From Stegostoma tigrinum (lineage: Eukaryota): 64,000 bases of DNA. Of the stretch, positions 1-56,330 are shown in pieces. The notes below the pieces were generated by a model. That model searched no databases. It saw nothing but the letters and a program-made list of their open reading frames with translations, and was not told the DNA's origin. Each line of letters begins with the position of its first letter. Positions within the stretch are counted from its first letter, which is position 1. The stretch lies in assembly GCF_030684315.1 (NCBI RefSeq), contig NC_081362.1, positions 96,703,187-96,767,186 of the forward strand, in the 5' to 3' direction. The translations under genes and the position numbers were made by a program.

Positions 1-2709
1 AGTCTGCGGACTTGTTCCTTATGTCTTTGGAACCCAACAACCACCTTCTGCAAATTCCCCTACAAGCCAGTCACTGTACGAACTTGGGAATACCTAACGA
101 TTCATTCAGTGCCACTGAGTCAACTTCCTGGAATTCCCTCCCTGTGGGAGTTTTGGGTCAAACCGCAGCACATGATCTGCAGCAGATTAGGAAGAAAGCT
201 CACTCACAGTCATCTCCACTATAATAATTATCATAAAACACTTCTGATAATGTGCCACAAATCCATCTTATTAAGTAGCTGAGAGTACTTGATCTGGGGA
301 CTTGTATGGACAGAGGATTGGCTAATGAAAAGATGACAGACAGTTGGGATTAAGGTGGTACTTTCATGGTGGCAATTTTCAAATTAAACTGTTTATTGAG
401 ATCCCCAACTTCCAAAAGGTCCTAAATTATCATCTGCCATTTAAAGGAACATCTGCCAGGACTTTGTCAATTGAAACAATAATGCTTTCCAAACAATATT
501 TCTTTCTCTCAAACAGAAAACAATCCACTTTCACACTTGAAAGTGCCCTAATGATTTCAATGTTTATTTTGTTTGCTCATAAAATCTGTCCAAATGCAGA
601 CAAATTCCCACTTGCACTCCAACAACTGTTCCTGTCAGATTCATATTTTAAAATTACATCACAACTTCAGAAATATTGACTTGTAAATCTTTGAGTCCCA
701 TCAGAGACAGAGGCCAAAACTGACATGCCATGAATTCAGAATCCAATTTCCAAACTCAATGATATTAAAATCATACAGAAACTACATACTCACATCACAG
801 TCTTTGGACTCAAATGGGGGGAGTCCATGGGTAATCAAACCTCAATGAACTGCAAGCCATTCTATAAGTGTAACTGAATGAACAATGTGGCCAATTTGTA
901 TCTCTTCTGGCTTCCGATCCAAAGTAAAGAAAAAAAAATTGGTAGTTTGTTTGATGACCTCAAAAATAATTTATTATCAGTAAGACAGGTTATTGAAAAG
1001 GTGGAAAATGTGATCAGGAACTACATTTCTGTTTGGGTTAAACCATATCCATGAATCTCAAACACGTTCATTCACAGACAAGGTGCTATAGCTCTGCAGT
1101 AAGAGTTTGTGCTGTTTGTTAAAGGCCTGAAAGAAAGACCATCCCAGTGGGACAAGGAAATCACACCAGAAGGCAGAATGTGCTGACCTCTCAGAGTTCC
1201 TTCAATTTCTTGTCAATGAGGCTGATTCCTGAAAGTTATACAGTGGTGTGAGATCTTCTGACCATCATTCAGATTCTGATGGGAAATAATTTGAAATCCT
1301 GATCTTGGAAACTTTATCTTTACAAATTCTTCATGAAGAGATCTGACCAACCTTTCCCACGTATTTTACTGACTGAGATGGAGAACTTGTGCAGCTGGTC
1401 CTGATTGAAGTTTCCTTCCTTTGTTATCAGAAGGGAACATTTTTCACTGCTTTTGGTCAGCTGGACAATTCTGCTTCAGCTGCTGTGAACGCACACAGCA
1501 ACTTGGGCCGGGAAACTGTTGCCGGGCCGCATTCAAAATCAGTCAGTCCAGCAACTTAGCGATAAAACCCAGTTCTTACCTTGTGTTAACATCCTTCATC
1601 GAGTGAAAATGAATTTGAATTTTGTAAAACACAGTATATTTTGTTCTTTCAGATGCAAGTGATCGTGGGGTAAACCGTTTTCAACCAAGAAATGTCTAAA
1701 CAGTTCAATGAACCAGGTTCTCATTGTCTGCACATTTTTGTGTTGCCCTAATATGGGAATCAATTCATTTTTTTTTCGTTTTGCTACAGACTTCACAGGG
1801 TTATTCTCATGTTTTCTTATAAATTCGCTGTTTTTGTTTTCAGCTGAAGATCCTGCTCCCGGCTCTGCCTGCTCCTGCACATCCGTCAGAATTGCGCTTC
1901 GAAATGAAATTGTCTCCACTGCTCTTATTTCTCCATCCAGTCTGATTGTCCACACATTTCTCTGCATTACATCTGATCTGCTGTTGGGTGCCCACTCCTA
2001 CCCAATGGGACATGTGGAAGAGAAAGCCCCAGGAACTACCTGACCCAGGATGGAGACTGAAGCCTGGCTCTCAGGAATGGTCAAAACGAAGCTCCAGCGA
2101 ATTATGTCGGAAACGCCCAGAATACGATGATCATTCTTCCCGAGTCACATGGCTGGGACGGATGGAGTGTAATGTCGAATAATGACAACATCTCAGCACC
2201 AATCCCAGTCTCAGCTGTGGGAGCTCATGGAGACCAAGTTTGTTCCCTTACCCCGTGCTCGATGTGGACTGGTTCCCTTTAGCCTGCATCGAACTAGTTT
2301 TCTCTTCAATGGAGAGAGATATGTGTGTCCCTGTGTGCTCCATGGTTCATTCCTGATCCCCAGGAGATTCCCTGCAGATGGGTAACCTCACAGAGAAATC
2401 TCCCTGACTCTGTTCATCCAGCCCAATGGCACTGACACTCTTGTGAGTCGAATGGAATTAATATCCCTGCACGATAAAGCTCCATATTTCCCACAAAATC
2501 CTCCTGCAATGTCACAGAAAACCCCCCTCAGGAAATCACCCGCCCTCAACCAACACTGAACCTGAGCTCAGCTTCCAACCCGCAGTGAAACCATCCCTGA
2601 GATCACTCTCCATCACTTCCTCAGTTTTATTCATCGCGAACTGATTTCTAATTCATCCATTGGGCCAGGGGTTATTGCTGGAGGAGATTGTCATGTAAAC
2701 TCTACTTAC

Positions 2710-3048
2710 TGTCTACAATGAGCTGGCTTCCTCCGCCAAGGACGTGTCCCCGGACCGAGCAGCGATAGACCCCAGTGTCGCTGGGCTGCACGTTTGTGAT
2801 GGTCAGAAGGAAGCTGCTTTCGGAGTCTCTGGAAGGTTCGAATCGCTCAGCGAATCCTGAATACCAATGTCTGCCATTCCATGCGTCATGTACCAAGATC
2901 CGCTCTCTCTTTCCTGGCCGCTCCCGGTACCAGTGAACACGGATCCGTCTCAGTGCGGTGTTCCTCACGGTGCACTGTAATCGGGCAGTGAGACCCTCTG
3001 TGACACGTTGCAGGACCGGAGACTGGAGAAGGACCAGGGCATTTGCAC
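2710..3048 (-). CDS. Germline-joined VJ-type Ig V-set exon (V1) of a non-rearranging antigen-receptor-like gene
   Basis: Acceptor tattttgaag|GT and donor A|gtaagt, phase 1-1, 339 bp, open. Translation (G)ANALVLLQSPVLQRVTEGLTARLQCTVRNTALRRIRVHWYRERPGKRERILVHDAWNGRHWYSGFAERFEPSRDSESSFLLTITNVQPSDTGVYRCSVRGHVLGGGSQLIVD. It has the B-strand Cys, C-strand Trp, RF, LTI, DxGxYxC and a J-like xGxGSxLxV in the same exon, with no RSS. Confidence 0.93.
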
Positions 3049-3879
3049 CTTCAAAATATAAAAAGTAAATGAACAGCTGTCAGATTTTTCTAAGCTCCCG
3101 CCAGGGTTTACAGGGTCCCTGCCAGCAGCCTGAGTCCTGTACAAGGAGGGGACAAATTGCCAGGACCAGCTGTGATCGTTTGATGGTGCTTGGTATCCTG
3201 GCTCTCAGTCACTGTGTGCTGAGAACAGCAACACAGATGTTGCTGTAACAGGGACATGTTGAGCTCACGCTGTCCAACTGCTGCCTGACACGAGTTAACT
3301 TTCCACACACTGCAATTCTCTTCCCTGGACTATTCATCGTGGGAGAGGCTTCCTCACGACACGCAGCAAATGTGACGATTGGAACTGAGAAGAGGCTGCT
3401 GCTTTAGAAGAGGAAGCCAGGCTGTATTTTAAGGGGGAAGATATCGTCAAAGACTAACAGAGATACAGCTTCTACAGCCTCAGCAAACTGAAGCCGCTCC
3501 GCAGGCTAGGGTACCGGGGGGGTTGGAGGGCAGACTGGGGGCAATGGGGAGTTTCTCCCTCCATGCCCTGGATATCGAAACAAAAACTTAATTGCTGAAA
3601 AAGCTCAGCAGGTCTGGCAGAATCTGTGGAGGAGAAAACAAGTTAAAGTTTCAGGTCCAGTCACCCTTCCTCGGGGCTGATGGTGGCTGGAAAAACGTCA
3701 ATTTATCTTCTGGAAGTAGGGAGGTGGGTGAGGACGGGAGTAAAAGAAAGCTTATAGCCAAAAGAGAGAGAAAGACAGTTGGACAGACAAAGGAGTTGTT
3801 AACGATCAGGCGGGGAGGGTGAATAGTTGTTAATGGGGACTGTTAGTGACTAACAACACGGGGTGTACAGAGATCCTCA

Positions 3880-5720
3880 CCATAGCTACTGCCACCTGCA
3901 CAAAAGTAAAATTGGAAAGATGACCAAACCATGGCTTCCACAGGAAATTGGAGACAGTACAAGATCCAAGGAAGAGGCAAACAAGCTGGCTGAACAAAAT
4001 AACAGAACAGAGGAGAGATTGATTATTGCAAAGATTAAGGGATTAACGGAATGATTAAGGGAATGATTAAGGGAAAGAAAATAATAGACAAACGTATGTT
4101 TGAGGGGAACATAAAATCTGACCAGAATGGTTTTTTCTGTTGGGATCTAAAGAGAAGAGGATTGATGAAGATAAATGTTGTTGCCTTCCAGTCAGAAACT
4201 AGAATTCCTAATGGGGAGCAAAGAACTGGTGAAGGAACTTTGTGAAATCTTTTGTCTCTGAGCTCACAAAGGAGGATACAAGTAACGTTCCAGAAATGTT
4301 GGGGAACAAAGGGTTCATTGAGAAGGAGGAACTGATGGAAATCAGGATTAGTCAACAAATATAGTTGGGGAAATTTATGAGATTGCAAGATAATAAATCT
4401 GCAGGCTCTGATAATCTCCATTCCAGAGCACTTAAGGAAGTGGGCCTGGAAATAATGGACGCATTGTTGGTCATCTGCCAAGGTCCTACAGATACTGAAC
4501 AGTTGTTGGGTAGCTAATGTAACCCCACTGTTTAAAAAGGAGACAGGGAATTATAGACCATTTTCCTGATGGTGCTCCTGGCAAAAATGTTAGATTCCAA
4601 TATAAAAGATTTAATAACAGAGCACTTTGAAAACTGAGGCTTCGGGGATTTACAAAAGCTTCACAAATTGACTGGAACTCTTCACGCATGTTACTTGTAG
4701 AGTTGATGAAGGGGAGACAGTGGATGTAGTGTATTTGGATATTCAGAAGGCTTTTGAGAAAATCACATGAGAGATTAATGTGTAAAATTAAAGGAAATTG
4801 GCTCTGGGTGTTGTATATTAAGACTTTTTGGAGAACTAGTTTGCAAACAAAGAGAAAACAAAGAGCAGGAATAAATGGATCTTTTTCTGACTGGTAGCCA
4901 GTGACTAATGGGACACGTCAGCAGTAGGATGGCGCGATTCACAATATATATGAATGATTCAGATGAGGGAAATAGACATAATATGTTCAAGTTTGCTAGT
5001 GACATAAGGTGGGTGGGAGGGTAAGTTGTGCGGAGGATGCCATAATGTTTCCGTGTGAATTGGATAAGTTGAGTAACTAGCCAAATGCATGGCAGATGCA
5101 GGATTATGTGGGAAAATGTGACCTTATTCACTTTGATACAAAAACAAGCCGGTAGATTCATATTTGAAGGATGATAATTGGGGAGTAGTGGAGGTACAAT
5201 GAGACCTGGGTGTCTTTGCACACCAGTCACTAAAAAGAAATGTTGCAGATGCAGCAGGCAGTAAAAAGGGAAAATACTGTGTTGGCCTTCACAGTGAGAG
5301 AATGAGTACAGGAGCAGGGATGTGTTACTACAGTAATACAGAGTCTTGGACAGACCACACATGAAATATTGTGAGGAATTTTTCTCTCCTTATCTGAGGA
5401 AGGATGTTCTTACTACAGGGGGAGTGCAGCAAAGATTTACCAGACTGACCCCTTGGATGTTGATATTCAGCATGAAGAGAAGTTGAATCATTTCCAATTG
5501 AATTCACTGCACTTCAGAAGAATTTGAGGACGAGTCTCAAATAATTCTACAAAAGTTCAACAAGTCTAGATAGGTTAGATGCAGAAAGGATGTTCCTGGT
5601 AGTAGGCGAGTCAGGAGTCTGAGGATACTGAGTAAACCATGTGGGACTGAGAAGAGGAGAATTGTGTTCACAGGGCCAGTGAACAGTGAATATAAATGAG
5701 GGAATCTGGTAGAAAGAAGC
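3880..5720 (+). mobile_element. Decayed CR1 ORF2 (RT) fragment
   Basis: gtggatgtagtgtatttggatattcagaaggcttttga, aagtttgctagtgacata and other CR1 RT hallmarks, with many stops. Confidence 0.8.
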
Positions 5721-6779
5721 AGCAGAAGTAAAGGACATTGATTTCTCTCTGAATGCAGCAGCACCTCTCTGAGGGACATGGACTGGACTGGATCGACCAG
5801 ATGCTCTTCGAACTGGTAATGACTGCCTCTGGATCCTCTTTTCACATTCCCCATTGTGGGGGTCACTCTTGAGGTCATTATCTCTATATCACTGCCTCTG
5901 ACCTTGAGCACTTTCTCCTGGATCACAGTCAATATCTTGCCTCATTCACTGCCTGCCTGTGACAGTATCAGGTTCCTCTTCTGCAGTGAAGGCATAACGG
6001 GAACATCTATTGTCTATTCTGTGTCCCTAATCCCCATGGAAACATTGCATCGCTTGGCCCCTAATCTACCCCAATGATTCTTTGATAAAACTAATGACTG
6101 CGGATGTTTTAGATCTGAAATACAAACAGAAATTGTTGGAGAAACTCAGCAGGCCTGGTAGCATCCGTGGGAAGCTTCGAGTCCAGGGATTCTGCATCAG
6201 AACCCCAGTATTTTCTCTTTTTGTTCCAAGAGGCACAGGTTGAGAGATTTAGTTCCAGAGGGCAGTGATCAGGCCAATGATGGCACAAAACAAAGTGTTT
6301 TACTTGGAAAAGACAAAAGTACTGAAGATAATTTTTGCTCCATCTTATATTTAAACAAAGAGTTAAATCTTAACAGCATACACCTCTTAACTCAATTTCA
6401 CCACCATTTTGTCCCTGTTGATGTGCTGATGGGAAACACTGGTTAATGCCAATTACGGCTTCAGGAAGTTTGATTTAGGAGCTGGAGTCTGAACTGCAGA
6501 CATTGCATCACATGAAGGAAGTGGAAAATTCCCTGGAAACCTTTCTGCAGAAGGTGCTGACACATCTTGGATAAGGGAATTGAAGAAGAGTCATTTATCA
6601 GGGACAGGACGCTGTGATGCATATGAGGCCAAAATGGGTTCCATGGAAATACATCTGAGGAGCCTCAGCTCCTGCAGTTATCCAGCAGCTATAAGGTTCT
6701 TACAAGGTGTGTGGGCAAGCGTGGGGACTGCAGGGAGAATGTGCAAACTGTCCATGGGACATTGGGATGGGAGTGATTC

Positions 6780-8830
6780 AAGTGGGGAGAGGAAATAGGA
6801 ATGTCATTGTGGGAGGAAACAGTATAATGCCGGGGATAGATCCTGCTCTCTACAGACATGAGCATAATTCCCGAAGGATAGGCTGCCTGACCAGTGCCAG
6901 GGTCGAGGATATCTCCTCAGAGTCGGAGAAGAACTTGGACATGAAAGAGCAGTATCCAGTCATCATCATCCATGTCGAGACCAATGACACTGGAAACACA
7001 AGAAAGGAGGTTTCACTGAAAGACTTTGAACAGTTTGCAGCTAAATTAGAATGCAGAACTTCTGAGATAAGAATCTCTGGATTACTGTCTGTGCCACAGA
7101 CAAACGGGAATAGGGATATAGAGTCAATCAGTGAAAGACGTTGTTTGGAGTTTGGTTGAGGTGGAATACGTTTTCATTCATGGGTCACTGGTGTAAAAGT
7201 GGGCTGTTCTCCTGGGACAGGCTTCACTTGAGCCATGCTAGGATTAGTGTCCTGGTGTATTGAACAACGAGGGTTGTGGAGAGGTTAGTAAACTAATTAG
7301 AAGGGGGCAGGGTGAAAGAGAAAGCATTTGGAGGCAGACAAAGCAAGATGAGGCAGCAGCATTACAGGAACAGGCAGAGTGTACAAACTCAGAAAAACAG
7401 TGGTCAACGGGGTCACCAGGGGCATTAATGTTAAAAAAACCAATAAGTGAATGACTCTTTCCTTGAAAACACTTTGTATTTTGGACAAAATGACAGCTCA
7501 ATTACACATTCAGATTTGGCATGAAATATTCATTCTCTTTCTCTCTCTACTGGTACTGCCAGGCCTGCTGAGTTTCTCCAGCATTCCCTGTGCTTGCTTG
7601 ACATTTCTATCATATGCAGTATTTTGCCTTTAGTAAAATAGGAAGCCATTGATGCAATACTTTCGGATTTTCAGTCAGTATTTTACAAGATCACACACAC
7701 GAGGATACTTAACAAGAGCCCCATGGTTTTGAGAGTAGTTTCTGCATATGGATAGAGAATTGGCTGACAAAGAGGGGAATTTTCAGGATGATAACCAACA
7801 GCTATTGGGTTTGAACAGGGATCAGTGCTGCAGCCAAAATTATATACATTATATTGTAATGAATTGTATTAGGAATGTGAATGGACTGTCACCAAGTTTG
7901 AGGATAACTCAGAAATAGTTGGGAAGGCAAGTAGTGACAAAATGTCTGCATCGGGACATTGACTTTGGAAAGTGAGAAGGCAAAAGCTTGGCAGATGGAA
8001 TATAATGTGAAGAAATGTGAGGTCATTCAATTTGACAGGAAGAATAGAGGAGATGAATATGGTTGAAATGTGAAAAACTGCAGAAAGCTTCCGCACAGTG
8101 GGATTCAGGAGTCAATGCCCATGAATCACAAAAAACTAACATCCAAGTTCCATTGGTAATAGTGAAGTCAAATGGAGATTTGGCCTTTATTTGCAAAGGA
8201 AACAGAATAAAATTCGGAAGCGGTGCTTCAACTATACAAAGCACAAATTCAGAACATAACTGGAATATTATGAAAAGTTTTGGGTCCCTGAGCAGAGGAA
8301 AGATGTCCTGTCATTGGAGGCTGTCCACAGAGCAATTACTGGGCAGGTATTCAGTGAGGAAAGATTGTCTTATGGGGAGAGATTAAATTGCTTGTACTTG
8401 CACTCATCAAAACATCGAAGAACGAGATGTAACCTTATTGAAACGTAAAAGATTCTTACAGGATTTGACAGGGTACATGCATAAAAATTATTTCTGGTGT
8501 GAGAGTCTGGGAGCAGAGGATAGAATCTCAGAATACGGGGGTGTACATTTAAAGCAGAGATAATGAGGAATTTGTTCACTGTGAGGAGAAATCGATACAA
8601 CACAGTGCTGTTGAGGCTGGGTCATTCATGTTGATGTTTAAATATTTTGTTTCATGGTTAAACATTCATGTTTAAATTTGAGAAAGGCAGATTTTTAATC
8701 AGAAAGTAAAACAAGGGACAATAGAGGAAAAAAACAAGAAGCTCAAGTTGGGGATTGTCAGAGAAACCTTGATGTCATTGAAAGACAAGCAACTCGATGG
8801 GCTGAATGGAATGTTTCTGCTCCTTTGTCT
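6780..8830 (+). mobile_element. Decayed CR1 ORF1-esterase and RT fragments
   Basis: VIVGGNSIMPGID...IIHVETNDTG (GDS/HVGTND esterase), followed by RT 3' remnants at 7640-8830. Confidence 0.75.
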
Positions 8831-10344
8831 TCTGTCTTCTAGAGCTGAGCAGCAAGGAAACAGGCAATTCGATCCAGCTGGCCTTGGCCAACCAGATATC
8901 CAAAACTGATCAAGTCTAATTTGCCAACATTTGGCCAGATCCCTCAAAATCCTTCCTACTCATGTAGCCATCCAGGTGCCTTTTCAATTCTGTAATTGCA
9001 GCAGCCTGCATCATCTCCTCCGGCAACTCTTCCCAGACACACACCACCCTCTGCGTTAAAATGTCTCCCATTAGCTCACTTTTAAATCTTTCCTCTCTCC
9101 TGTTAAAATCCTGCCCTCCAGTTTTGGACTACCTTACAAAGAACAAAGAACAAAGAAAATTACAGCACAGGAACAAGCTCTTCGGCCGTCCAAGCCTGCA
9201 TCAATCGAGATCCTCTGTCTAACCTGTCATCTATTTTCTAAGGGTCTGTGTCCACTTGCTCCCTGCCCATCCATGTACCTGTCCAAATATATCTTAAAAG
9301 ACGCTATCGAGCCTGTGTCTACCACCTCCGCTGGCAACACGTTCCGTGCACGCACCACCCTCTGTGCAAAGAACTTTCCACGCATATCTCCCTTAAACTT
9401 TCCTCCTCTCACTTTGAACTCATGACCCCTCGTAATTGAGCCCCCTACTCTGGGAAAAATGCTTTTTGCAATCCACCCTGTCTATACTCCATAATTCTGT
9501 AGACTTCAATCAGGCACACCGTCAATCTCCGTCTTTCAGATGAAAATAATCCTCATCTCATGACCCCTCGTAATTGAGCCCCCTACTCTGGGAAAAATGC
9601 TTTTTGCAATCCACCCTGTCTATACTCCATAATTCTGTAGACTTCAATCAGGCACCCCGTCAATCTCCATCTTTCAGATGAAAATAATCCTCATCTATTC
9701 AATCTCTCTTCATAGCTAGCACCCTCCATACCAGACAACATCCTGGTGAACCTCATCTGCACCCTTTACAAAGCATCCACATCCTTTTGGTAATGTGGCG
9801 ACCAGAACTGTACACAGTACTCCAAATGTGGCCGCACCAAAGTTCTATACAACTGCAACATGACCTGCCAACTCTTGTACTCAATACGCCGTCAAATGAA
9901 GGAAAACATGCCATATGCCTTCTTGACCACCCTATTGACCTGCGTTGTCACCTTCAGGGAACAATGGATCTGAACTCCTCCCTTGGGAAAGAAGACCGTG
10001 GATGTTCACCACATCTGTGCGCCTCAGGATTTTATAAAGCTCTATACGGTCACCCCTCAGCCTCCAACAATCCAGGGAAAATAGCCCCACACTGTTCAGC
10101 CTCTCCCTATAGATCAAATCGTATTATCCTCACAACACCCTTCTCTTTTTTTTTGGAAAGCATTCAAGTTTAGCAACACCTTTCTTCTGGCAAGGAGACA
10201 AGAACCGAACGCAATATTCTAAAAGTGGACTAATGTCTAATCTCAATGCAATTACCAATGAAGACAAGCTCTCCTAATGCCTTCTTCACTACCCTCTCGA
10301 ACTGCGACTCCGCTTTCAAGGAATTATACATCTGCATTCCAAGG

Positions 10345-11425
10345 GATAAGAAAGTGTGGAGCTGGATGAACACAGCAGGCCAAGCAGCATCTTAGGAGCA
10401 AAAAGCAGATGTTTCGGGCCTAGACCCTTCATCAGAAAAGGGGGATGGGGAGAGGATTCTGAATTAAATAGGGAGAGAAGGGGAGGTGGACCGAAGATGG
10501 AGAGAGGAGAAGATAGGTGGAGAGGAGAGTATAGGTGGGGAGTTAGGGAGGAAATAGGTCAGTCCGGGGAGGACGGACATGTCAAGGGGGCGGGATGAGG
10601 TTAGTGGGTAGGAAATGGAAGTGCTGCTTGCGATGAGAGGAGGGTACAGGTGAGAGGAAGAACAGGTTAGGGAGGCAGAACGAGCCGGCCTGGTTTTGGG
10701 ATGCAGTGGTTGGATGGGAGATTTTGAAGCACTGTATCTGCAGTACCCGTTGTGGCTTCCTCTACATCGCGGAAACCAAGCGGAGGCTTGGGGACTGCTT
10801 TACAGAACACCTATGCTCAGTTCACAATAGACATCTGCACCTCCCAGTCGTGAACCATTTCAATTCCCCCTCCCATTCCTCAGACGACATGTCCATCCTG
10901 GGCCTCCTGTAGTGCCCTAATGATGCCACCCGAAGGTTGCAGGAACAGCAACTCATATTCCGCTTAGGAACTCAGCAGCCCAATGGTATCAATGTTGATT
11001 TCACCATCTTCAAACTCTCCCCTCCACCCACTGCATCCCAAAATCAGCCCAGCTCGTCCCCACCTCCCTAAACTGTTCTTCCTCTCACCTATGCCCCCCT
11101 CCCACCTCAAGCCACACCTCCATTTCCTACCTCCTAACCTCATTCTGCCTCCTTGATCTGTGCATCCTCCCCAGACTGACCTATCTCCTCTCTACCTCCC
11201 CACCTATATTCTCCTCTCCACCTATCTTCTCCTCTATCAATCCTCAGTCCACCTCCCCCTCTCTCCCTATTTATTTCAGAATCCTCTCCCCATCCCCCTT
11301 TTCTGATGAAGGGTCTCGGCCCGAAACGTCAGCTTTTGTAGTCCTAAGATGCTGCTTGGCCTGCTGTGCTCATCCAGCTCCACACTTTGTTATCTCAGAT
11401 TTTCCAGCATCGGCAGTTCTCATTA
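10345..11425 (+). mobile_element. Penelope-like element fragment with GIY-YIG remnant and inverted pseudo-LTRs
   Basis: CICSTRCGFLYIAETKRRLGDCFTEH...HFNSPSHS. 10350-10700 is an inverted copy of 11030-11390, with hammerhead motifs at both ends. Confidence 0.88.
11303..11330 (+). ncRNA. Minimal type-I hammerhead ribozyme (Penelope-associated)
   Basis: CTGATGA-a-GGGtctcggCCC-GAAACGTC: intact core, stem II, palindromic ACGU stem III and a GUC cleavage triplet. Confidence 0.75.
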
Positions 11426-13701
11426 TCCCTGCACCCCAAGGGAGCTTTGCTCAGCAACATTCCCCAATTCTCTCCCTTTAACTGTACAAGCGCTGCCTTG
11501 ATTGGCCTTAACAAAATGCAAAACAACATGTTTATCTGAATTAAACTTCATCTGACACTCCTCAGCCAATAGGCCCATCTGATCAAGGTCCCATTGTACT
11601 CTGAGATAACCTTCTTCAATGTCCTCGACACCATCAATTGTGTTGTCATCTGCGTACTTACTGAGCATATGTCCCCTATTCACATCCAAATAATTTATAT
11701 AAATGACAACTAAAAGTAGTGGACCCAGCACTGATCCTTGCGACGCATCGCTGATCACAGGCCACCTGTCTGAAAAGCATCCAGAAAGATCTAACCTTGC
11801 CAACGATCTACCATGTAGAACCTTATCGATGTCTTGTTGAAGTTCATGTAGACAATGTCTAACGCTCTGCCTTCATTAATCTTCTTTGTCTCTTCTTCAA
11901 AAAACTCAATCAAGTTAATGAGACACAATTTCTCATGCACAAAACCATGTTGAATATCCCTGATCAGTCATTACATTTCCAAATACAAGTAATTCCTGTG
12001 CCATCTAATCCCCTCCAACAACTTAACAAACACTGATGTCAGACTCACCGGTCTACAGTTCCCTAACTTTTCCTTACTACTTTTCTTAAATAATGGTACC
12101 ACATTAGCCAAACCTCAAGGTTTCTGACACAGCACCTTTGGCTCTTGATGGTACAAACATCTCAGCAATGGTCTCAGAGATCTCCTCACTAGCTTCCCAC
12201 AAAGTTCAGAGATAGACCTGACCAGATTCTAGGGATTTATCCAACTTTATGCATTTTAAAACATACAGCACCTCCTCTTCCATAGTATGGACACTTTTCA
12301 AGATATCACTACTTATTGCCCCATGCCGACTATATCCCATATCCTTCCGTACAGTCAACACTGACAAAAAATACTTGTTTAGGATCTCACTGATCTCCTG
12401 CAGTTAAAGTTGAAGTGCTCAGAAAACCAGTACTGAAATGCTGGGACCAATGGCTTCCTTCTTGATCAGAACATTTCTGTGATTTTGGGAACAGTGAAAT
12501 TACACACTGCACAGCAAATATTGCTTCCCCCTTTAAGCTTCCTGAACTCACTTTGCAGCTGTTGTGCTGAAAATGCAATCGCGATCTTAGTTGAGTTGTC
12601 AAAATCGCATTTCCTGCAGGCAGTGTCTATCTTTGGTCTGTAGATGGTGAAATCCTCAGTTTGTTCCACATTATAGTCTGTCCATTAAACAGCTGGGAAA
12701 TGGTGGGAGCAATGAGGATACTACAGTGTCCGTGATTCTATGGAAGAAGCTTGCCTCAGTTGGCCACTCACACATAGTTTTGGCAGCCACAGCTTCCAGG
12801 AGCTTGTCTCAAAGCTGACCTTCCAATGGAATGGGCAAATGTCACACAGCAGTTACAGACAAGATACAGTGAGCGCGTGAGGCTGTTCCATACAGACGAG
12901 TGTGTCACTGTGGCAGCAGATCACCTGGCAGGAGTGAGTACAAGCAGCAGCAACAGAGAGAAGATTGCACTCTGCCGTTGTTGCCATCAGATTTTCATGG
13001 GGTGATCAGTGGCCTAGTTTGAAGATTTCAAGATTACAAAACAGAATTTGAAAAAGAGCAGTCGTCTGACCATTAAAATCCTTCTTTCAATTAACACCTT
13101 CACATATAACATGAACTGACTTTCAGCACATTTCCCTTTCGAAAGGCTCCCAGTTTTGACCAGTCCCAGGGTTCGGAGCTGTCACAGATACAGAACTTCA
13201 AACTGATTCGCAGTTTGTGAAGTTCTTGAGATGTTTTAATGGAGCCAATTAAATATTATTGATTGCAGAGAATTGTGAGTGTCAGCATGGCTCCATTGGT
13301 GAAATGCATTCTGAATCACAAAGCTGTAAAATCACCAATTTCATAAAAACAGTTGGCTCTCTTTCAAATCCACCCCAATGAGACCCAGTGAACACGCAGA
13401 CTCATCCAATCCACCCCGAATACACATTTTAATGTGCAACCTGCTCCTCAATCCCATTCTCCCATTCAGTGAATGACAGAAAATGATGGGAGGCACACTA
13501 TGTTTTCTGCTCTGTGTTCCCAGCCATGGAGCTCAATGTCACCTTCACCAAACTATCTCGAGACAGTGATAAATTCTCCCTGTGACACTCCCCTCGAGTT
13601 CTCAAAGTTCAAACGTATAGAATTTGCATAACTTCAAGAGCAGCACAAACCATGGAACGACCTTTTACAACAAGTTGAACCTCTCCAAAACAAACACTCA
13701 C

Positions 13702-13753
13702 CCAAAGCAACACAGAGGGACAGGGTCACAGCATAGAGAGTTCCGCTGATCAT
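13702..13753 (-). CDS. Signal-peptide (leader) exon of the VJ Ig-like gene
   Basis: gaaATG start, MISGTLYAVTLSLCVAL(G), 52 bp, phase-1 donor G|gtgagt. It joins V1 in frame to give MISGTLYAVTLSLCVALGANA-LVLLQSP, the typical split-leader layout of antigen-receptor V genes. The intervening 10.6 kb is mostly repeats. Confidence 0.75.
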
Positions 13754-24987: not shown

Positions 24988-25332
24988 CCATTACCATCAG
25001 CTGGATTCCATTTCCATTGATATCTCCACACACTTTATTGTAATAGACCCCACTGTCACTGGGCTGCACATTTCTAATGGTCAAAATTTAGCTGTTATTG
25101 GAGGAACCTCTGGAAGACTGGAATTGCTCAGTTATACCTGGGCTCCATTGTGTGATGCTCGTCACATAATGTGTTAAAACCTACTCCGTCATATTCGCTG
25201 GTTGCTCCCAGTGCCAGTGAACATCAGCGTGTGTCACTGTGTAATTCATCATGATGCACTGTAACCGGGCAATGTGACCCTCGGTGATACGTTCCAGGCT
25301 TGGAATCTGGAGAAGGACTGGGGCATTTGCAA
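24988..25332 (-). pseudogene. Pseudogenised germline VJ exon (V2), paralogous to V1
   Basis: Acceptor tctcttaaag|, donor G|gtatgt, 345 bp. Translation ANAPVLLQIPSLERITEGHIARLQCIMMNYTVTHADVHWHWEQPANMTE*VLTHYVTSITQWSPGITEQFQSSRGSSNNS*ILTIRNVQPSDSGVYYNKVCGDINGNGIQLMVM. Two in-frame stops and the F-strand Cys replaced by Asn. Confidence 0.88.
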
Positions 25333-26433
25333 CTTTAAGAGAAATATATTGAATGAATCAATTCTGAGGAAGGTGAATGGACACACAACATTAACCCTGA
25401 TTTCTCTCCACAGATGCTGCCAGACCTGCTGAACTTTTCCAGAAATTTCTGTTTTTGTTTCTGATTCCCAGCATCTGCAGTGTTTTTGGTTTTTTTATTA
25501 ACGAAGCTACAACAGTCTGAAGTTTTTGAAGGGCTCCAATTTTAGAGTTAAAAAGAGAGGACAGATTGTGAGAGTGAACCAATTGGGTGAAATTATTCAA
25601 ATAAACAAGACATTTTAGACCATAAGGCCATGGGATACAGGAGGTGAATTTAGCCATTCTGCCCATTGGGCCTGCTGTACCATTTGATCATGGCTGATAC
25701 GTTTCTCAATCCCATTCTCCTGCCTTTGACCTGCAATCCTTGCTCATCGGGAATTCATCCATCTCGTCAATACACTCACTGACTTGGACTCCACAGCTCT
25801 CTGCAGCAATGTCCTCCACAGATTCACCTCCCTGAAACTTATCAAATTACTCCTCATCTCAGTCTCAAATGGTCATGCCTTCACTCCGAGGCTGAGACCT
25901 GAGGTCCGAGTCTCTCCTATTAGTGGAAACATCCTCTCCATGACCACTCAATCAAGGCCACTCGGTACTCGGTCTGTTTCAATCTGATTCCCCGTCATCC
26001 TTCTAAACTCCATCAAGTACAGAGCCGGAGGCATCAATCACTCCTCAAGTGACAGCCCTTCATCCCCGGGATCCTTAATGTTAGTCTACTTTGAACCACC
26101 GACCCCCACCACAACACCAGCACGTCCAGCCTTTGAGACAATTTGTAGAAATAAAGAGCTGGACAGTCAGTGAAAAAACTGTTTTAATCAATTCAGAACA
26201 CATGAGGTTCTCAGAATTCAGTCTCAAAAGGAAAACCATTTCCTTCAGCTTGAATGGTAACCAAAGGGTGTCCGCAGCGGTTCAAAAAGGCAGCTCAGCA
26301 CCACCTCCTCAAGGGCAGTTAAGGATGGGCAATAAATGCAGGCCCAGCCAGTGACACCTACAAACAGATCTTCAATTCATTCATCGGGTAAGGGCTATTC
26401 GCTCGAAGTGATTGTCATGTAAACTCTACTCAC

Positions 26434-26563
26434 TGGTGATATTGAGCAGGCTTCCTCTCCCATAAATCCTTCCCCAGACTGAGCAATAATAGACCCCAGT
26501 GTCACTGGGCTGCACGTTTGTGATGGTCAGAATGAAGCTGTTACTGGAGGGGTCTCTGGAAGG
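26434..26563 (-). pseudogene. 3' half of a third germline VJ exon (V3), truncated by a LINE fragment
   Basis: PSRDPSSNSFILTITNVQPSDTGVYYCSVWGRIYGRGSLLNIT, donor A|gtgagt. The following intron (gtgagtagagtttacatgacaatc...) is homologous to the intron after V1. The 5' half is replaced by RT-derived sequence from about 26565. Confidence 0.88.
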
Positions 26564-48999: not shown

Positions 49000-50600
49000 C
49001 CTGGCCCCGGGAAGGGATATTCACTGACAATGGAGCTGAGCGCTGCCGATAGGCATTGAGCGGGAACCGGGAGCGATATTGGATGGTGGCGATTACAGGT
49101 GAAATGTAGAAGGTTCAGGGTCACACAGAGAGAGACGGAGAGAGCACAGTGTAACCTCCCAGAAACAGTTCCTTGCTGACCTTTCGGGAATAAATGGGTT
49201 CAGGATGAATTTACCTGAATCCAAGCTGCAGCATCGACCCCGGAACAGCCTGGGTCCCGCTCCTGGCCCGAGTCAAAACCTGCTTCACTGCAGCTCCTAT
49301 CCCGGTCCGCCAGGGTTCTCTACCGCTTCTCTCCCGGTCTGTATCCTTGTCTGTCCAGGTCCTATCCTGGCCGTATCCTGTTTGATTTCAGGTTCTATCC
49401 CAGTCTTTTTCCGGTCCTTTCAGGGTCCAGTCCTGCTTTATCCCGCTCTATCCCGGTGCTGTCCCGGTCCTATCCCGGTGCGATCCCACTCTATACCGGT
49501 GCGATCCCGCTCTATCCCTGTTCTATCCCGGTCCAATCCTGCCCTGAACGGTTTTATCCCGGCCCTAACCCGCTTTATCCCAGTCCTATCCCGATGCTGT
49601 CCCGTGCTTTCCCGCTCTATTCCGGTGCGATCCCGCTCTATCTCGATGTAATCCCGCTGAATCCCAGTCCTATGCCGGTGCGATCCCCCTCTATCCCGGT
49701 GCTGTCCCGGTCCTATCCCGGTGCGATCCCGCTCTATCCCGGTGCTGTCCCGGTGCGATCCCACTCTATCCCGGTGCGATCCCGGTGCTGTCCCGGTCCT
49801 ATCCCGGTGCGATCCCGCTCTATCCCGGTGCTGTCCCGGTCCTATCCCGGTGCGATCCCACTCTATCCCGGTGCTGTCCCGGTCCTATCCCGGTGCGACC
49901 CCGCTCTATCCCGGTGCGATCCCCCTCTATCCCGGTGCTGTCCCGGTCCTATCCCGGTGCGATCCCACTCTATCCCGGTGCTGTCCCGGTCCTATCCCGG
50001 TGCGACCCCGCTCTATCCCGGTGCGATCCCACTCTATCGCTGTGCTGTCCCGGTCCTATCCCGGTGCGATCCCGCTCTATCCCGGTGCTGTCCCGGTCCT
50101 ATTCCGGTGCGATCCCACTCTATCGCGGTGCTGTCCCGGTGCGATCCCGCTCTATCCCGGTGCTGTCCCGGTCCTATCCCGGTGCGATCCCGCTCTATCC
50201 CGGTGCTGTCCCGGTCCTATCCCGGTGCGATCCCGCTCTATCCCGGTGCTGTCCCGGTCCTATCCCGGTGCGATCCCGCTCTATCCCGGTGCTGTCCCGG
50301 TCCTATCCCGGTGCGATCCCACTCCGGTTTCGCTTCGATCTGAAAAACCGCGGTTCGCTCGGACCTTTAACTCTGCCCAGATGTGAGGAGAACGTCTGAA
50401 ATCCCGGAACGGATCACCTGGGTAATCCGGATCTGGATCCTGCGCGGTGTTCGACGAGAGACCAGAGAGTCAGACAGCGCGGAAACAGACTACCCCCAAC
50501 CCACCCTCAACCCAATCCCCAGCTTACCCCGTCCCACCCGGGGTGACTGAGTCCTCAGCTGTGTCTGACGTCTGCCCTCCCTCCCTCCCAGAAACAACAG
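49000..50600 (-). promoter_or_regulatory. CpG-rich 5' region / putative promoter and non-coding first exon of the ZNF395-like gene
   Basis: Strong CpG enrichment. Minus-strand donors at cag|gtaaat (exon end 49215) and gg|gtaagc (about 50528). The frame leading into the ATG exon has an upstream stop and no ATG, so the exon would be 5'UTR. Confidence 0.5.
49430..50325. repeat. 43-bp CpG-rich minisatellite built from 10-11 bp sub-units
   Basis: Unit TCCTATCCCGG-TGCGATCCCGC-TCTATCCCGG-TGCTGTCCCGG. It is homogeneous from about 49680 to 50325 and degenerate to the left. Confidence 0.95.
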
Positions 50601-54299: not shown

Positions 54300-56330
54300 C
54301 CCAGCGAAGCACTCCCTCAGCACTGACACTCCAACAGTGCCCACTCCCTCAACACTGACCCTCCGGCAGTGCGGCGCTCCCTCAGCACTGACGCTCTGAC
54401 AGTGCCCACTCCCTCAGCACTGACCCTCCGACAGTGCCCACTCCCTCAGCGCTGACCCTCCGACAGTGCGGCGCTCCCTCAGTACTGACCCTCTGACAGT
54501 GCCCGCTCCCTCAGTACTGACCCTCTGACAGTGTCACACTCCCTCAGCACTGACCCTCTGACAGTGCCCACTCCCTCAGTACTGACCCTCTGACAGTGCC
54601 CGCTCCCTCAGTACTGACCCTCCGACAGTGCCCGCTGCCTCAGTACTGACCCTCTGACAGTGTCACACTCCCTCAGCACTGACACTCCAACAGTGCCCAC
54701 TCCCTCAGCACTGACCCTCCGACAGTGCCCACTCCCTCAGCGCTGACCCTCCGACAGTGCGGCGCTCCCTCAGTACTGACCCTCTGACAGTGCCCGCTCC
54801 CTCAGTACTGACCCACTGACAGTGTCACACTCCCTCAGCACTGACCCTCTGACAGTGCCCACTCCCTCAGTACTGACCCTCTGACAGTGCCCGCTCCCTC
54901 AGTACTGACCCTCCGACAGTGCCCGCTGCCTCAGTACTGACCCTCTGACAGTGTCACACTCCCTCAGCACTGACCCTCTGACAGTGCCCACTCCCTCAGT
55001 ACTGACCCTCTGACAGTGCCCGCTCCCTCAGCACTGACCCTCCGACAGTGCCCACTCCCTCAGCACTGACCCTCCGACAGTGCCCACTCCCTCAGCACTG
55101 ACCCTCCGACAGTGCCCACTCCCTCAGCACTGACCCTCCGACAGTGCCCGCTCCCTCAGTGCTGACCCTCCGACAGTGCCCACTCCCTCAGCACTGACCC
55201 TCCGACAGTGCCCACTCCCTCAGCACTGACCCTCCGACAGTGCCCGCTCCCTCAGTGCTGACCCTCCGACAGTGCCCACTCCCTCAGCACTGACCCTCCG
55301 ACAGTGCCCACTCCCTCAGCACTGACCCTCCGACAGTGCGGCGCTCCCTCAGCACTGACCCTCCGACAGTGCCCACTCCCTCAGCACTGACCCTCCGACA
55401 GTGCGGCGCTCCCTCAGCACTGACCCTCCGACAGTGCCCACTCCCTCAGCACTGACCCTCCGGCAGTGCCCACTCCCTCAGCACTGACCCTCCGACAGTG
55501 CCCACTCCCTCAACACTGACCCTCCGGCAGTGCGGCGCTCCCTCAGCACTGACGCTCTGACAGATCTGCGCTCACTCAGTACTGACCCTCCGGCAGTGCG
55601 GCGCTCCCTCAGCACTGACCCTCCGACAGTGCTCATTCCCTCAGCACTGACCCTCCGACAGTGCCTGCTCCCTCAGCACTGACTCTCCAACAATGTCACA
55701 CTCCCTCAGCACTGACCCTCCGACAGTGCGGCGCTCCCTCAGCACTGACCCTCCGACAGTGCCCACTTCCTCCACACTGACCCTCCGACAGTGCCCCCTC
55801 CCTCAGCACTGACCCTCCAACAGTGTCCAGACCCTCAGCCCTGACCCTCCAACAGTGCCCCCTCCCGCAGCACTGACCCTCCGACAGTGCCCCGCTCCCT
55901 CGGCACTGACCCTCCGACAGTGCGGCGCTCCCTCAGCAGTGACCCTCTGACAGTGCCCCGCTCCCTCGGCACTGACCCTCCGACAGTGCGGCGCTCCCTC
56001 AGCAGTGACCCTCTGACAGTGCCCCCTCCCTCAGCACTGACTGTCCAACAGTGCGGCACTCCCTCAGCACTGACCCTCCAACAGTGCCCCCTCCGCCAGT
56101 GCGGCGCTCCCTCAGCACTGACCCTCCAACAGTGCCCCCTCCCTCAGCACTGACTCTCCAACAGTGCCCCCTCCCTCAGCACTGACCCTCCGACAGTGCG
56201 GTGTTCCCTCAGCACTGACCCTCCGACAGTGCCCCCTCCCTCAGCACTGACCCTCCGCCAGTGCGGCACTGCCACAGCACTGACCCTTTAACAATGAGGT
56301 ATTCCCTCAGCATTGACCATCCAATCCCAC
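54300..56330. repeat. 32/33-bp satellite array (about 60 copies)
   Basis: Unit CAGCACTGACCCTCCGACAGTGCCCACTCCCT with variants. A 291-bp (9-unit) higher-order duplication is visible near 54447 and 54738. Confidence 0.96.

Follow-up and report, generated by a model that had tools for sequence, protein, structure and literature searches.

A zebra shark V exon encodes the membrane-distal domain of a likely inhibitory four-V receptor from a cartilaginous-fish family closest to Ig light chain sigma-2

The V exon designated V1 lies in a 64,000-nucleotide stretch of the zebra shark (Stegostoma tigrinum) genome, here called the window, and belongs to a gene for a membrane protein with four V domains. 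The reading we regard as likely is that V1 forms the outermost domain of an inhibitory immune receptor, that the V domains of the receptor family have Ig light chain sigma-2 as their nearest relative and work unpaired, and that domain 1 is predicted to bind ligand through its GFCC' face and loops. The initial annotation had proposed that V1 is a convergent single-domain V of the VHH/VNAR kind, because residues of the V-V interface are lost.

The V1 exon is a 339 bp, phase-1 open frame with AG/GT ends and matches the Pfam V-set with an E-value of 3e-15. FR2 reads WYRERPGKRERILVH and carries a one-residue deletion relative to the paralogues, and CDR3 consists of the six residues SVRGHV. In our own IMGT-style numbering, anchored on C23, W41, C104 and the G-x-G motif, the relevant codons are R50 AGA (2908), R52 CGG (2902), R103 CGC (2764), R107 CGG (2752) and L118 CTT (2740). 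The substitutions first noticed in FR2, at 103 (Y to R) and at 118 are thus present in the exon as R50, R52, R103 and L118, but the likeness of FR2 to the VHH KERE motif is out of register, owing to the deletion. V1 has 15 arginines, the highest number among 283 family domains, and a net charge of +6; it is also one of nine among the 283 that have no N-glycan sequon. Contigs from runs X1 (2500-3520) and X2 (2500-3042), one of which is possibly the source sample of the assembly, match the exon with no differing letter, so these residues are not assembly errors.

The AF2 model of V1 (pLDDT 89.1, pTM 0.82) shows a complete V-set fold with strands at 45-52 and 58-60, so that C' and C'' are present. 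A VIA fold search with this model returned antibody and TCR V domains, with Z up to 19.1 and an rmsd of 1.5 A over 111 residues; VNAR is not among the 50 rows listed, which has no bearing either way. ESM Atlas features place V1 in generic V-set clusters, and matches in PDB sequence searches were dominated by antibodies.

V1 is 100% identical to residues 18-131 of the zebra shark proteins XP_059504820 and XP_059504819 (P0005 and P0031; 585 and 595 residues). Mapped back on the genome, the protein is encoded by a leader exon, four VJ exons, one TM exon and three exons for the cytoplasmic part (Table 1), and all four ectodomains are full VJ domains. Contigs from X5 and X6, two samples of one study whose library kind is not on record, join position 3048 to 13702 over a 10,653-base GT..AG intron. 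We regard X5 and X6 as RNA solely because their contigs carry this intron-skipping joint, which is absent from the X1 and X2 contigs. They span 2786-3045, with R52 inside and R103 outside, and the splice from V1 to D2 is taken from the database gene model. No RSS heptamer was found in window positions 1500-3100, and an octamer, which the sigma-2 gene has, is lacking within 650 bases of the ATG.

The cytoplasmic tail of the V1 receptor holds three tyrosines, in the motifs AVYATV, CHYAEV and SEYAVV, of which only the last is a canonical ITIM, and the TM has no charged residue. D2, D3 and D4 contain one, three and seven sequons, respectively; D2 keeps Y103, W107 and Y118, and D4 also reads FRC. 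The AF2 model of the full-length receptor has a pTM of 0.33 with domain packing undefined, and a fold search with it returned tandem-Ig matches only, at TM-scores of 0.14-0.26.

Table 1. Exons and residues of the V1 gene, and duplicate pieces in the same window. Positions are those of the window unless a genome position is given.
Feature	Position	Strand	Remarks
Split-leader exon (MISGTLYAVTLSLCVAL+G), V1 gene	13702..13753	-	protein mapping and X5/X6 contigs
V1: single-exon VJ domain, domain 1 (membrane-distal)	2710..3048	-	four-V type I receptor
V1 FR2 codons R50-E51-R52, former VH/VL face	2900..2908	-	
V1 R103 (CGC), C104, CDR3, R107 (CGG), L118 (CTT)	2738..2764	-	
Intron towards D2	1..2709	-	
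D2, D3, D4, TM, three cytoplasmic exons	G000:C11:96701318, 96699296, 96697154, 96696270, 96692074, 96690138, 96688810		left of window
V2: dead D3-type exon, part of partial duplicate	24992..25330	-	two stops, Cys104 to Asn
V3: 3' half of D2 copy, without 5' half	26432..26563	-	identity to D2

Two further V sequences in the window, V2 and V3, had been compared with V1 as its paralogous counterparts. The TAG of V2 does sit in the column of V1 R52, and V3 does retain YYC and YGRG, but neither is an equivalent of V1: both are dead fragments, derived from a partial copy of D3 and D2. V3 is 100% identical in protein to D2 residues 203-246, and 97% in DNA over 313 bases. A duplicate of the whole V1 gene is found at C11 96.13-96.16 Mb; its D3 shows no replacement changes, and one of its exons is a D1/D2 chimera. 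In this chimeric exon (L034:5490-5834, G000:C11:96145486) the 3' part is almost the same as D2, with one silent and one replacement change, and the 5' part is D1-like; recombination between exons shuffles ligand faces. Elsewhere in the window minisatellites are found at 49439-50324 and 54310-56324, with periods of 11/43 and 32; the long ORFs near 49.2-50.4 kb are due to these repeats. The remainder, judged by eye, consists of LINE-like and SINE-like fragments.

The genome contains 111 matches to V1 (150 candidates scored), and 53 of these are located at C11:96.06-97.77 Mb. Stops interrupt 17 of the 53, and a few are halves of one exon; V1 lies in a 1.7-Mb birth-and-death cluster. This cluster is flanked by CHRNA2/4-like and ADCY8-like genes (140 of 533 candidate frames scanned) and is on a different contig from the sigma-2, IgH/TCR-alpha-delta (C55) and NCR3/UrIg-like (C44) genes. 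No C1 domain matched on C11 among the 150 scored candidates, and none was found in the C11 loci examined. Protein searches gave 100 homologues, those named being from sharks and rays, and the database entries carry automatic names throughout. A profile search of representatives added six Callorhinchus proteins at 108-124 bits per domain, one of which has a TM and three domains in tandem. Among the 132 new representatives, of which ten had their names looked up, no non-family domain scored above 63 bits, and the best 150 representatives include no bony-vertebrate member. The family is at least as old as Chondrichthyes and is apparently an undescribed family of cartilaginous fishes (sharks, rays and chimaeras). 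We found no description of it in full-text literature searches, and a term search of the main text of PMC3964593 gave nothing relevant; much of the field is published in subscription journals, and prior mention is possible.

Family proteins carry one to six full VJ domains. CDR3 has six residues in 281 of 283 domains, and 238 have two cysteines. First domains, which are the most variable, carry 2.3 sequons and a charge of +1.8, the other domains 3.7 sequons and a charge of -1.1. A tyrosine motif is present in 79 of the 99 TM-bearing proteins and a charged TM residue in three; ITAM-spaced motifs occur in 21 of 117 proteins. As far as motifs tell, this is a multigene cluster with both ITIM-type and activating-type tails, as in paired receptors.

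Several members depart from the common plan. At L036:8326, continuing into L037 (G000:C11:97363322+), a family V exon lacks a donor and continues as an open frame of ~1,400 residues, in which N-glycan sequons, Ser, Thr and Gly abound; bamboo shark P0117 starts alike (V plus stalk), and this member is possibly mucin-like, secreted or stalked. A D1 type with a 12-residue CDR2 duplication (L041:4721-5101, P0008, P0032) is found in zebra, whale and epaulette sharks. The Callorhinchus proteins P0218, P0243, P0245 and P0276 have an extra Cys at 105 and often at 118 (CCVWGDVCG); these cysteines could bridge CDR3 by a disulfide at the pairing site. L054, L055 and L139 (G000:C11:97.69-97.78 Mb) comprise two copies of a divergent two-domain member, whose bamboo shark and catshark relatives (P0154, P0166) have an Arg at the start of the TM and are a possible adaptor-coupled activating form.

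The pairing interface was compared over 283 distinct domains of full length, which came from 116 of 117 proteins; isoforms and near-copies are included, so the counts are not independent events. Position 52 is W in 167 domains and R in 39. Position 103 is Y in 170, F in five and another residue in 108 (R in five), and position 118 is aromatic in 128 and otherwise in 155 (L in five). All three aromatics are kept in nine domains, one is lost in 172, two in 99 and all three in three. V1 is among these last three, and is the sole domain with both R52 and R103. The light-chain Pro50 occurs in none of the 283, vs eight of nine sigma-2 chains, and R50 in 34. A GNG[ST] sequon adjoins position 118 in 128 domains. 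In 214 of 219 junctions, 13-14 residues lead from G121 to residue 5 of the following domain. This leaves about three linker residues, and so short a linker would not let two domains of one chain pair in the Fv manner. Because Pro50 and the aromatics are lost family-wide and the linkers are short, partner independence is likely old and general, and the V domains of the family likely work unpaired throughout. Dimers between chains are conceivable for some members, since position 118 is still aromatic in 128 of the 283 and W52 persists in 167. The V domain of UrIg2 dimerises via another face, according to part of PMC12227049.

The proposal that V1 is unpaired and uses its former interface as a ligand face thus remains likely, but on other grounds, since the trait is family-wide (four tandem V and no C1 in the receptor; at least one aromatic lost in 274 of 283 domains and Pro50 in all). 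V1 resembles camelid VHH and shark VNAR/NAR-TCR V in having a charged or polar former VH/VL face and in being likely unpaired. Charged residues occupy VHH hallmark FR2 positions in V1 (R50, R52), as they do in some other family members. However, VHH and VNAR/NAR-TCR V are rearranged heavy-chain or TCR domains with a long CDR3, whereas V1 is germline-fixed and light-chain-like with a six-residue CDR3 and both C' and C''. IgNAR V is described as seven-stranded, without C' and C'' (PMC3149040, a legend). Nor is V1 followed by a heavy-chain constant region lacking CH1, but by three V exons, a TM and a tail. It is therefore highly improbable that V1 is a convergent single-domain antigen-binding V whose charged substitutions were selected to free it of a partner. 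The charged face would be expected of such a domain, but VJ is joined, no heptamer is seen at window positions 1500-3100, C domains are absent, Pro50 had already been lost by the family, the likely orthologues keep the aromatics, and IgNAR V is distant, at 29.5 bits as against 100-117 for sigma-2.

The closest domain from another species is D1 of epaulette shark P0007, which has the FR2 deletion, R50 and L118 in common with V1 and keeps W52, Y103 and W107. In a whale shark fragment, the second domain is 87.6% identical to D2 of the V1 receptor (next best 73%). The domain before it, a putative orthologue of V1 represented by its 3' half only, reads YYC-SVWGRVYGRG, i.e. it has Y103, W107 and Y118. 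Because these likely counterparts keep the aromatics, R52, R103 and R107 are private to the V1 lineage. The initial annotation had reasoned that orthologues with aromatics would mark the changes as private decay; they are private for these three arginines, but R50 and L118 are common with the epaulette shark, and decay of a dead gene does not apply because the frame is intact and spliced. A dN/dS comparison showed no excess: pairwise values, from extant-only counts, were 0.67-1.04 for V1 vs 14 near paralogues. Relative-rate tests for V1 were flat, with no increase.

That the arginines are nearly neutral, the result of an exposed, unconstrained face drifting under GC-biased gene conversion with no new function, deserves serious weight, although on balance we doubt it. 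V1 has the highest GC content (57%) and CpG count (22 vs 3-16) among 14 intact exons, the codons for R52, R103 and R107 are all A/T-to-G/C changes from the family codon, and dN/dS does not exceed 1. The private bases of V1 run to G/C in 14 cases and to A/T in four (p 0.031, uncorrected, 14 rows), but one other row is equally biased in the opposite direction (p 0.039). Furthermore, divergence from the duplicate is far higher in the V1 exon (dS 0.41 over its 5' part) than in the neighbouring intron, which is 95-100% identical over 420 bases. Against neutrality, the changes concentrate on CDR1 and the GFC face with core residues intact, and D3 of the duplicate pair has no replacement changes, so D1 holds most of the variation. 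The basic, glycan-free face of V1 suggests an anionic ligand; drift with GC-biased conversion accounts for the arginines about equally well, and is compatible with the explanation that we prefer for the family.

The best match to V1 outside C11 is a cluster of V plus one C1 exon at C60:3.37-3.64 Mb, containing both split genes (V-RSS12, RSS23-J; 394-395 bases removed on joining) and joined genes. For the nurse shark NS5/sigma-2 genes, the same order of RSS12 then RSS23 and both split and joined forms, with amplicons of 880 vs ~490 bp, are given in parts of PMC2435157, PMC5192425 and PMC4279169. We labelled the C60 cluster sigma-2 because its organisation fits NS5 and by elimination, kappa-like and lambda-like genes being found on C10 and C34. 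The labels of the other reference V domains are presumed from context and motifs.

With a V-only profile of the family (47 rows), all 13 sigma-2 rows scored 100.6-116.5 bits and 50 other V domains at most 70.4; IgNAR-type V scored 29.5, UrIg-like 35.5, NCR3-like 21.6-27.9 and CD300-like (C25) 15.1 bits. Identity to sigma-2 V is 38-39% for V1 and up to 50% for slower family members. An N..IL.I motif is present in 28 of 47 family rows, 10 of 13 sigma-2 rows and none of 50 others, counts that are not independent because the motif was picked after viewing the alignment. Trees were built on 95 columns, excluding CDR3 and J, from a set with no identified IgL sigma or UrIg2 row. The family was sister to sigma-2 plus a joined C282 gene with support of 100/93 (86 rows). 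The same relation received 92/79 with 94 rows (17 redundant ones omitted, long-branch rows inside the family clade, bootstrap unsettled) and 94/92 with the 57 rows that were left after dropping 37, under a mixture model in which one divergent C11 domain falls out. In all three best trees the family is sister to sigma-2 rather than nested inside it, but AU tests do not reject other placements, among them a topology that unites all IgL V (p 0.28).

In addition to having the closest V domain, sigma-2 (sigma-cart, type I, NS5) shares with the family a split leader and an equal J length to the splice site, and one joined sigma-2 gene shares the six-residue CDR3 pattern. In contrast, the family has no C exon and no RSS, has lost Pro50, and has tandem V domains, a TM and a tyrosine tail on another chromosome; the V-J-C minicluster with one C1 exon that characterises sigma-2 is not seen in it. 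The joined gene, L052 (G000:C60:3633686-3634030), is kept in whale, bamboo and epaulette sharks and is a candidate partner of IgM1gj; its CDR3 is EVWGYI, as compared with SVWSYI and KVWGDI in the family. Derivation of the family from L052 was considered: L052 nests among carpet-shark sigma-2 in all trees, but a grouping of the family with L052 is not rejected by the AU test (p 0.079). The CDR3 match may be parallel, because L052 lies within carpet-shark sigma-2 while the family reaches Callorhinchus. Other V genes were encountered in the same searches. The C282 gene, L056 (G000:C282:118189-118536), is a single light-chain-like gene, joined VJ-C in structure, with 40-45% identity to sigma-2 V; all trees place it with sigma-2. 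L058 and L101-L103 (G000:C60:7.85-8.60 Mb) are arrayed single-exon VJ genes with a C1-like exon behind each, possibly of a PRARP-like or another VJ-C1 family. L131 (G000:C44:25.53-25.54 Mb) is a UrIg-like gene of VJ plus three C1, and L119 and L114, also on C44, are NCR3-like V exons; this contig likely carries the MHC.

Should the sister relation hold, the most parsimonious view is that the common ancestor was a split gene and that germline rejoining gave rise to the family exon. We therefore lean, at somewhat short of an even chance, towards a sigma-2 VJ exon whose germline joining preceded the divergence of chimaeras and sharks, and which then left its C exon and multiplied. That the family is instead an unsplit relic, outside the rearranging Ig/TCR V, seems rather unlikely. 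A topology with the family outside a clade of all Ig/TCR V survives the AU test (p 0.27), and the split leader, the J-like G strand as in antigen receptors, the uniform CDR3 and an age of at least that of Chondrichthyes would all suit a relic. However, the three best trees all join the family to sigma-2 only, no bony-vertebrate member was seen in the best 150 representatives, and the family is located on C11 between CHRNA2/4-like and ADCY8-like genes, not on C44 or C55. Furthermore, germline joining is common and has been demonstrated for shark light chains (PMC2193156, in part).

The V1 protein is most likely a leukocyte inhibitory receptor. Its ectodomain would be a monomeric string of beads with the glycosylated D2-D4 as stalk, and D1 would bind ligand via its loops and free GFCC' face. 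Phosphorylated tail tyrosines would recruit SHP-1/SHP-2, as is typical of other paired Ig-like receptor families, and paralogues with ITAM-spaced tails would activate. The extra arginines of V1, recent and private to its lineage on an exposed face, would likely leave a basic surface, free of glycans, to which an anionic ligand could bind; GC-biased conversion may have contributed.

We think it unlikely that the receptors are instead Fc- or Ig-binding in the manner of pIgR, or homophilic adhesion proteins dimerising between chains. The full-length fold search did return tandem-V matches like pIgR (E 1e-24, TM-score 0.19), VH is in principle a conceivable partner for a face derived from a light chain, and D2 keeps the aromatics named above. 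On the other hand, D1 is the most variable domain, and the birth-and-death cluster has both tail types. The second disulfide of CD300/pIgR is absent as well, since most of the 283 domains have two cysteines only and just one has a Cys after W41. In MDIR/CD300/pIgR this disulfide lies in the C-C' region, with a WC motif, and NITR, NILT and MDIR/CD300 are multigene birth-and-death families with V-type ectodomains and inhibitory and activating tails (PMC3031540, in part).

The receptors described here resemble NITR, NILT, MDIR/CD300 and XMIV in being a multigene cluster with V-type ectodomains and both kinds of tail. All four are paired Ig-like receptor families of fish and amphibians, and in NITR an intermediate (I) domain comes after the V domain. 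The shark family differs from these families in an ITAM-spaced motif in the receptor's own tail and in its one to six VJ domains, and from NITR in the absence of an I domain; proteins among the fish representatives that we take to be NITR-like from a motif scored at most 40 bits. From CD300/MDIR it differs in the missing second disulfide, as judged from the WC motif. Zebra shark CD300-like and NCR3-like V scored 15-28 bits, and the NCR3-like V (C44) falls outside in the trees. The MHC linkage and NKp30-type V of NCR3/XMIV were not seen in the family, as judged from the zebra shark NCR3-like V. UrIg, UrIg2, PRARP and NCR3 have a single-exon VJ with a split leader (PMC12227049, in part), as does the family. 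However, UrIg and UrIg2 have C1 domains and lie in the MHC or antigen-receptor complex, whereas the family has no C1 and lies elsewhere, and it is far closer to the rearranging V of sigma-2 than to UrIg-like V. The VJ-then-C1 arrangement of UrIg/UrIg2/PRARP is not found in the family, as judged from exon order and the C1 matches.

Put together, and still more tentatively than the germline joining by itself, RAG may have joined a sigma-2 V and J in the germline more than 400 My ago. The exon, rid of C exon and heavy-chain partner alike, would have become a set of tandem single-domain paired receptors with ITIM and ITAM tails, present from chimaeras to rays, with V1 as a recently remodelled basic ligand-binding tip. 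To our knowledge, few NK or myeloid paired-receptor families have been characterised in sharks. The family is a large candidate set of such receptors, present in databases as automatic gene models with misleading names, and it is also a source of hundreds of natural V domains of light-chain type, likely able to fold on their own. The value of the finding lies in this family and its kinship with sigma-2, the proposed nanobody-like convergence of V1 being minor. Depending on what that kinship reflects, either receptor genes may arise backwards, by germline joining of rearranging genes, which would weaken the argument that unsplit means ancestral, or the family may be a better relic.
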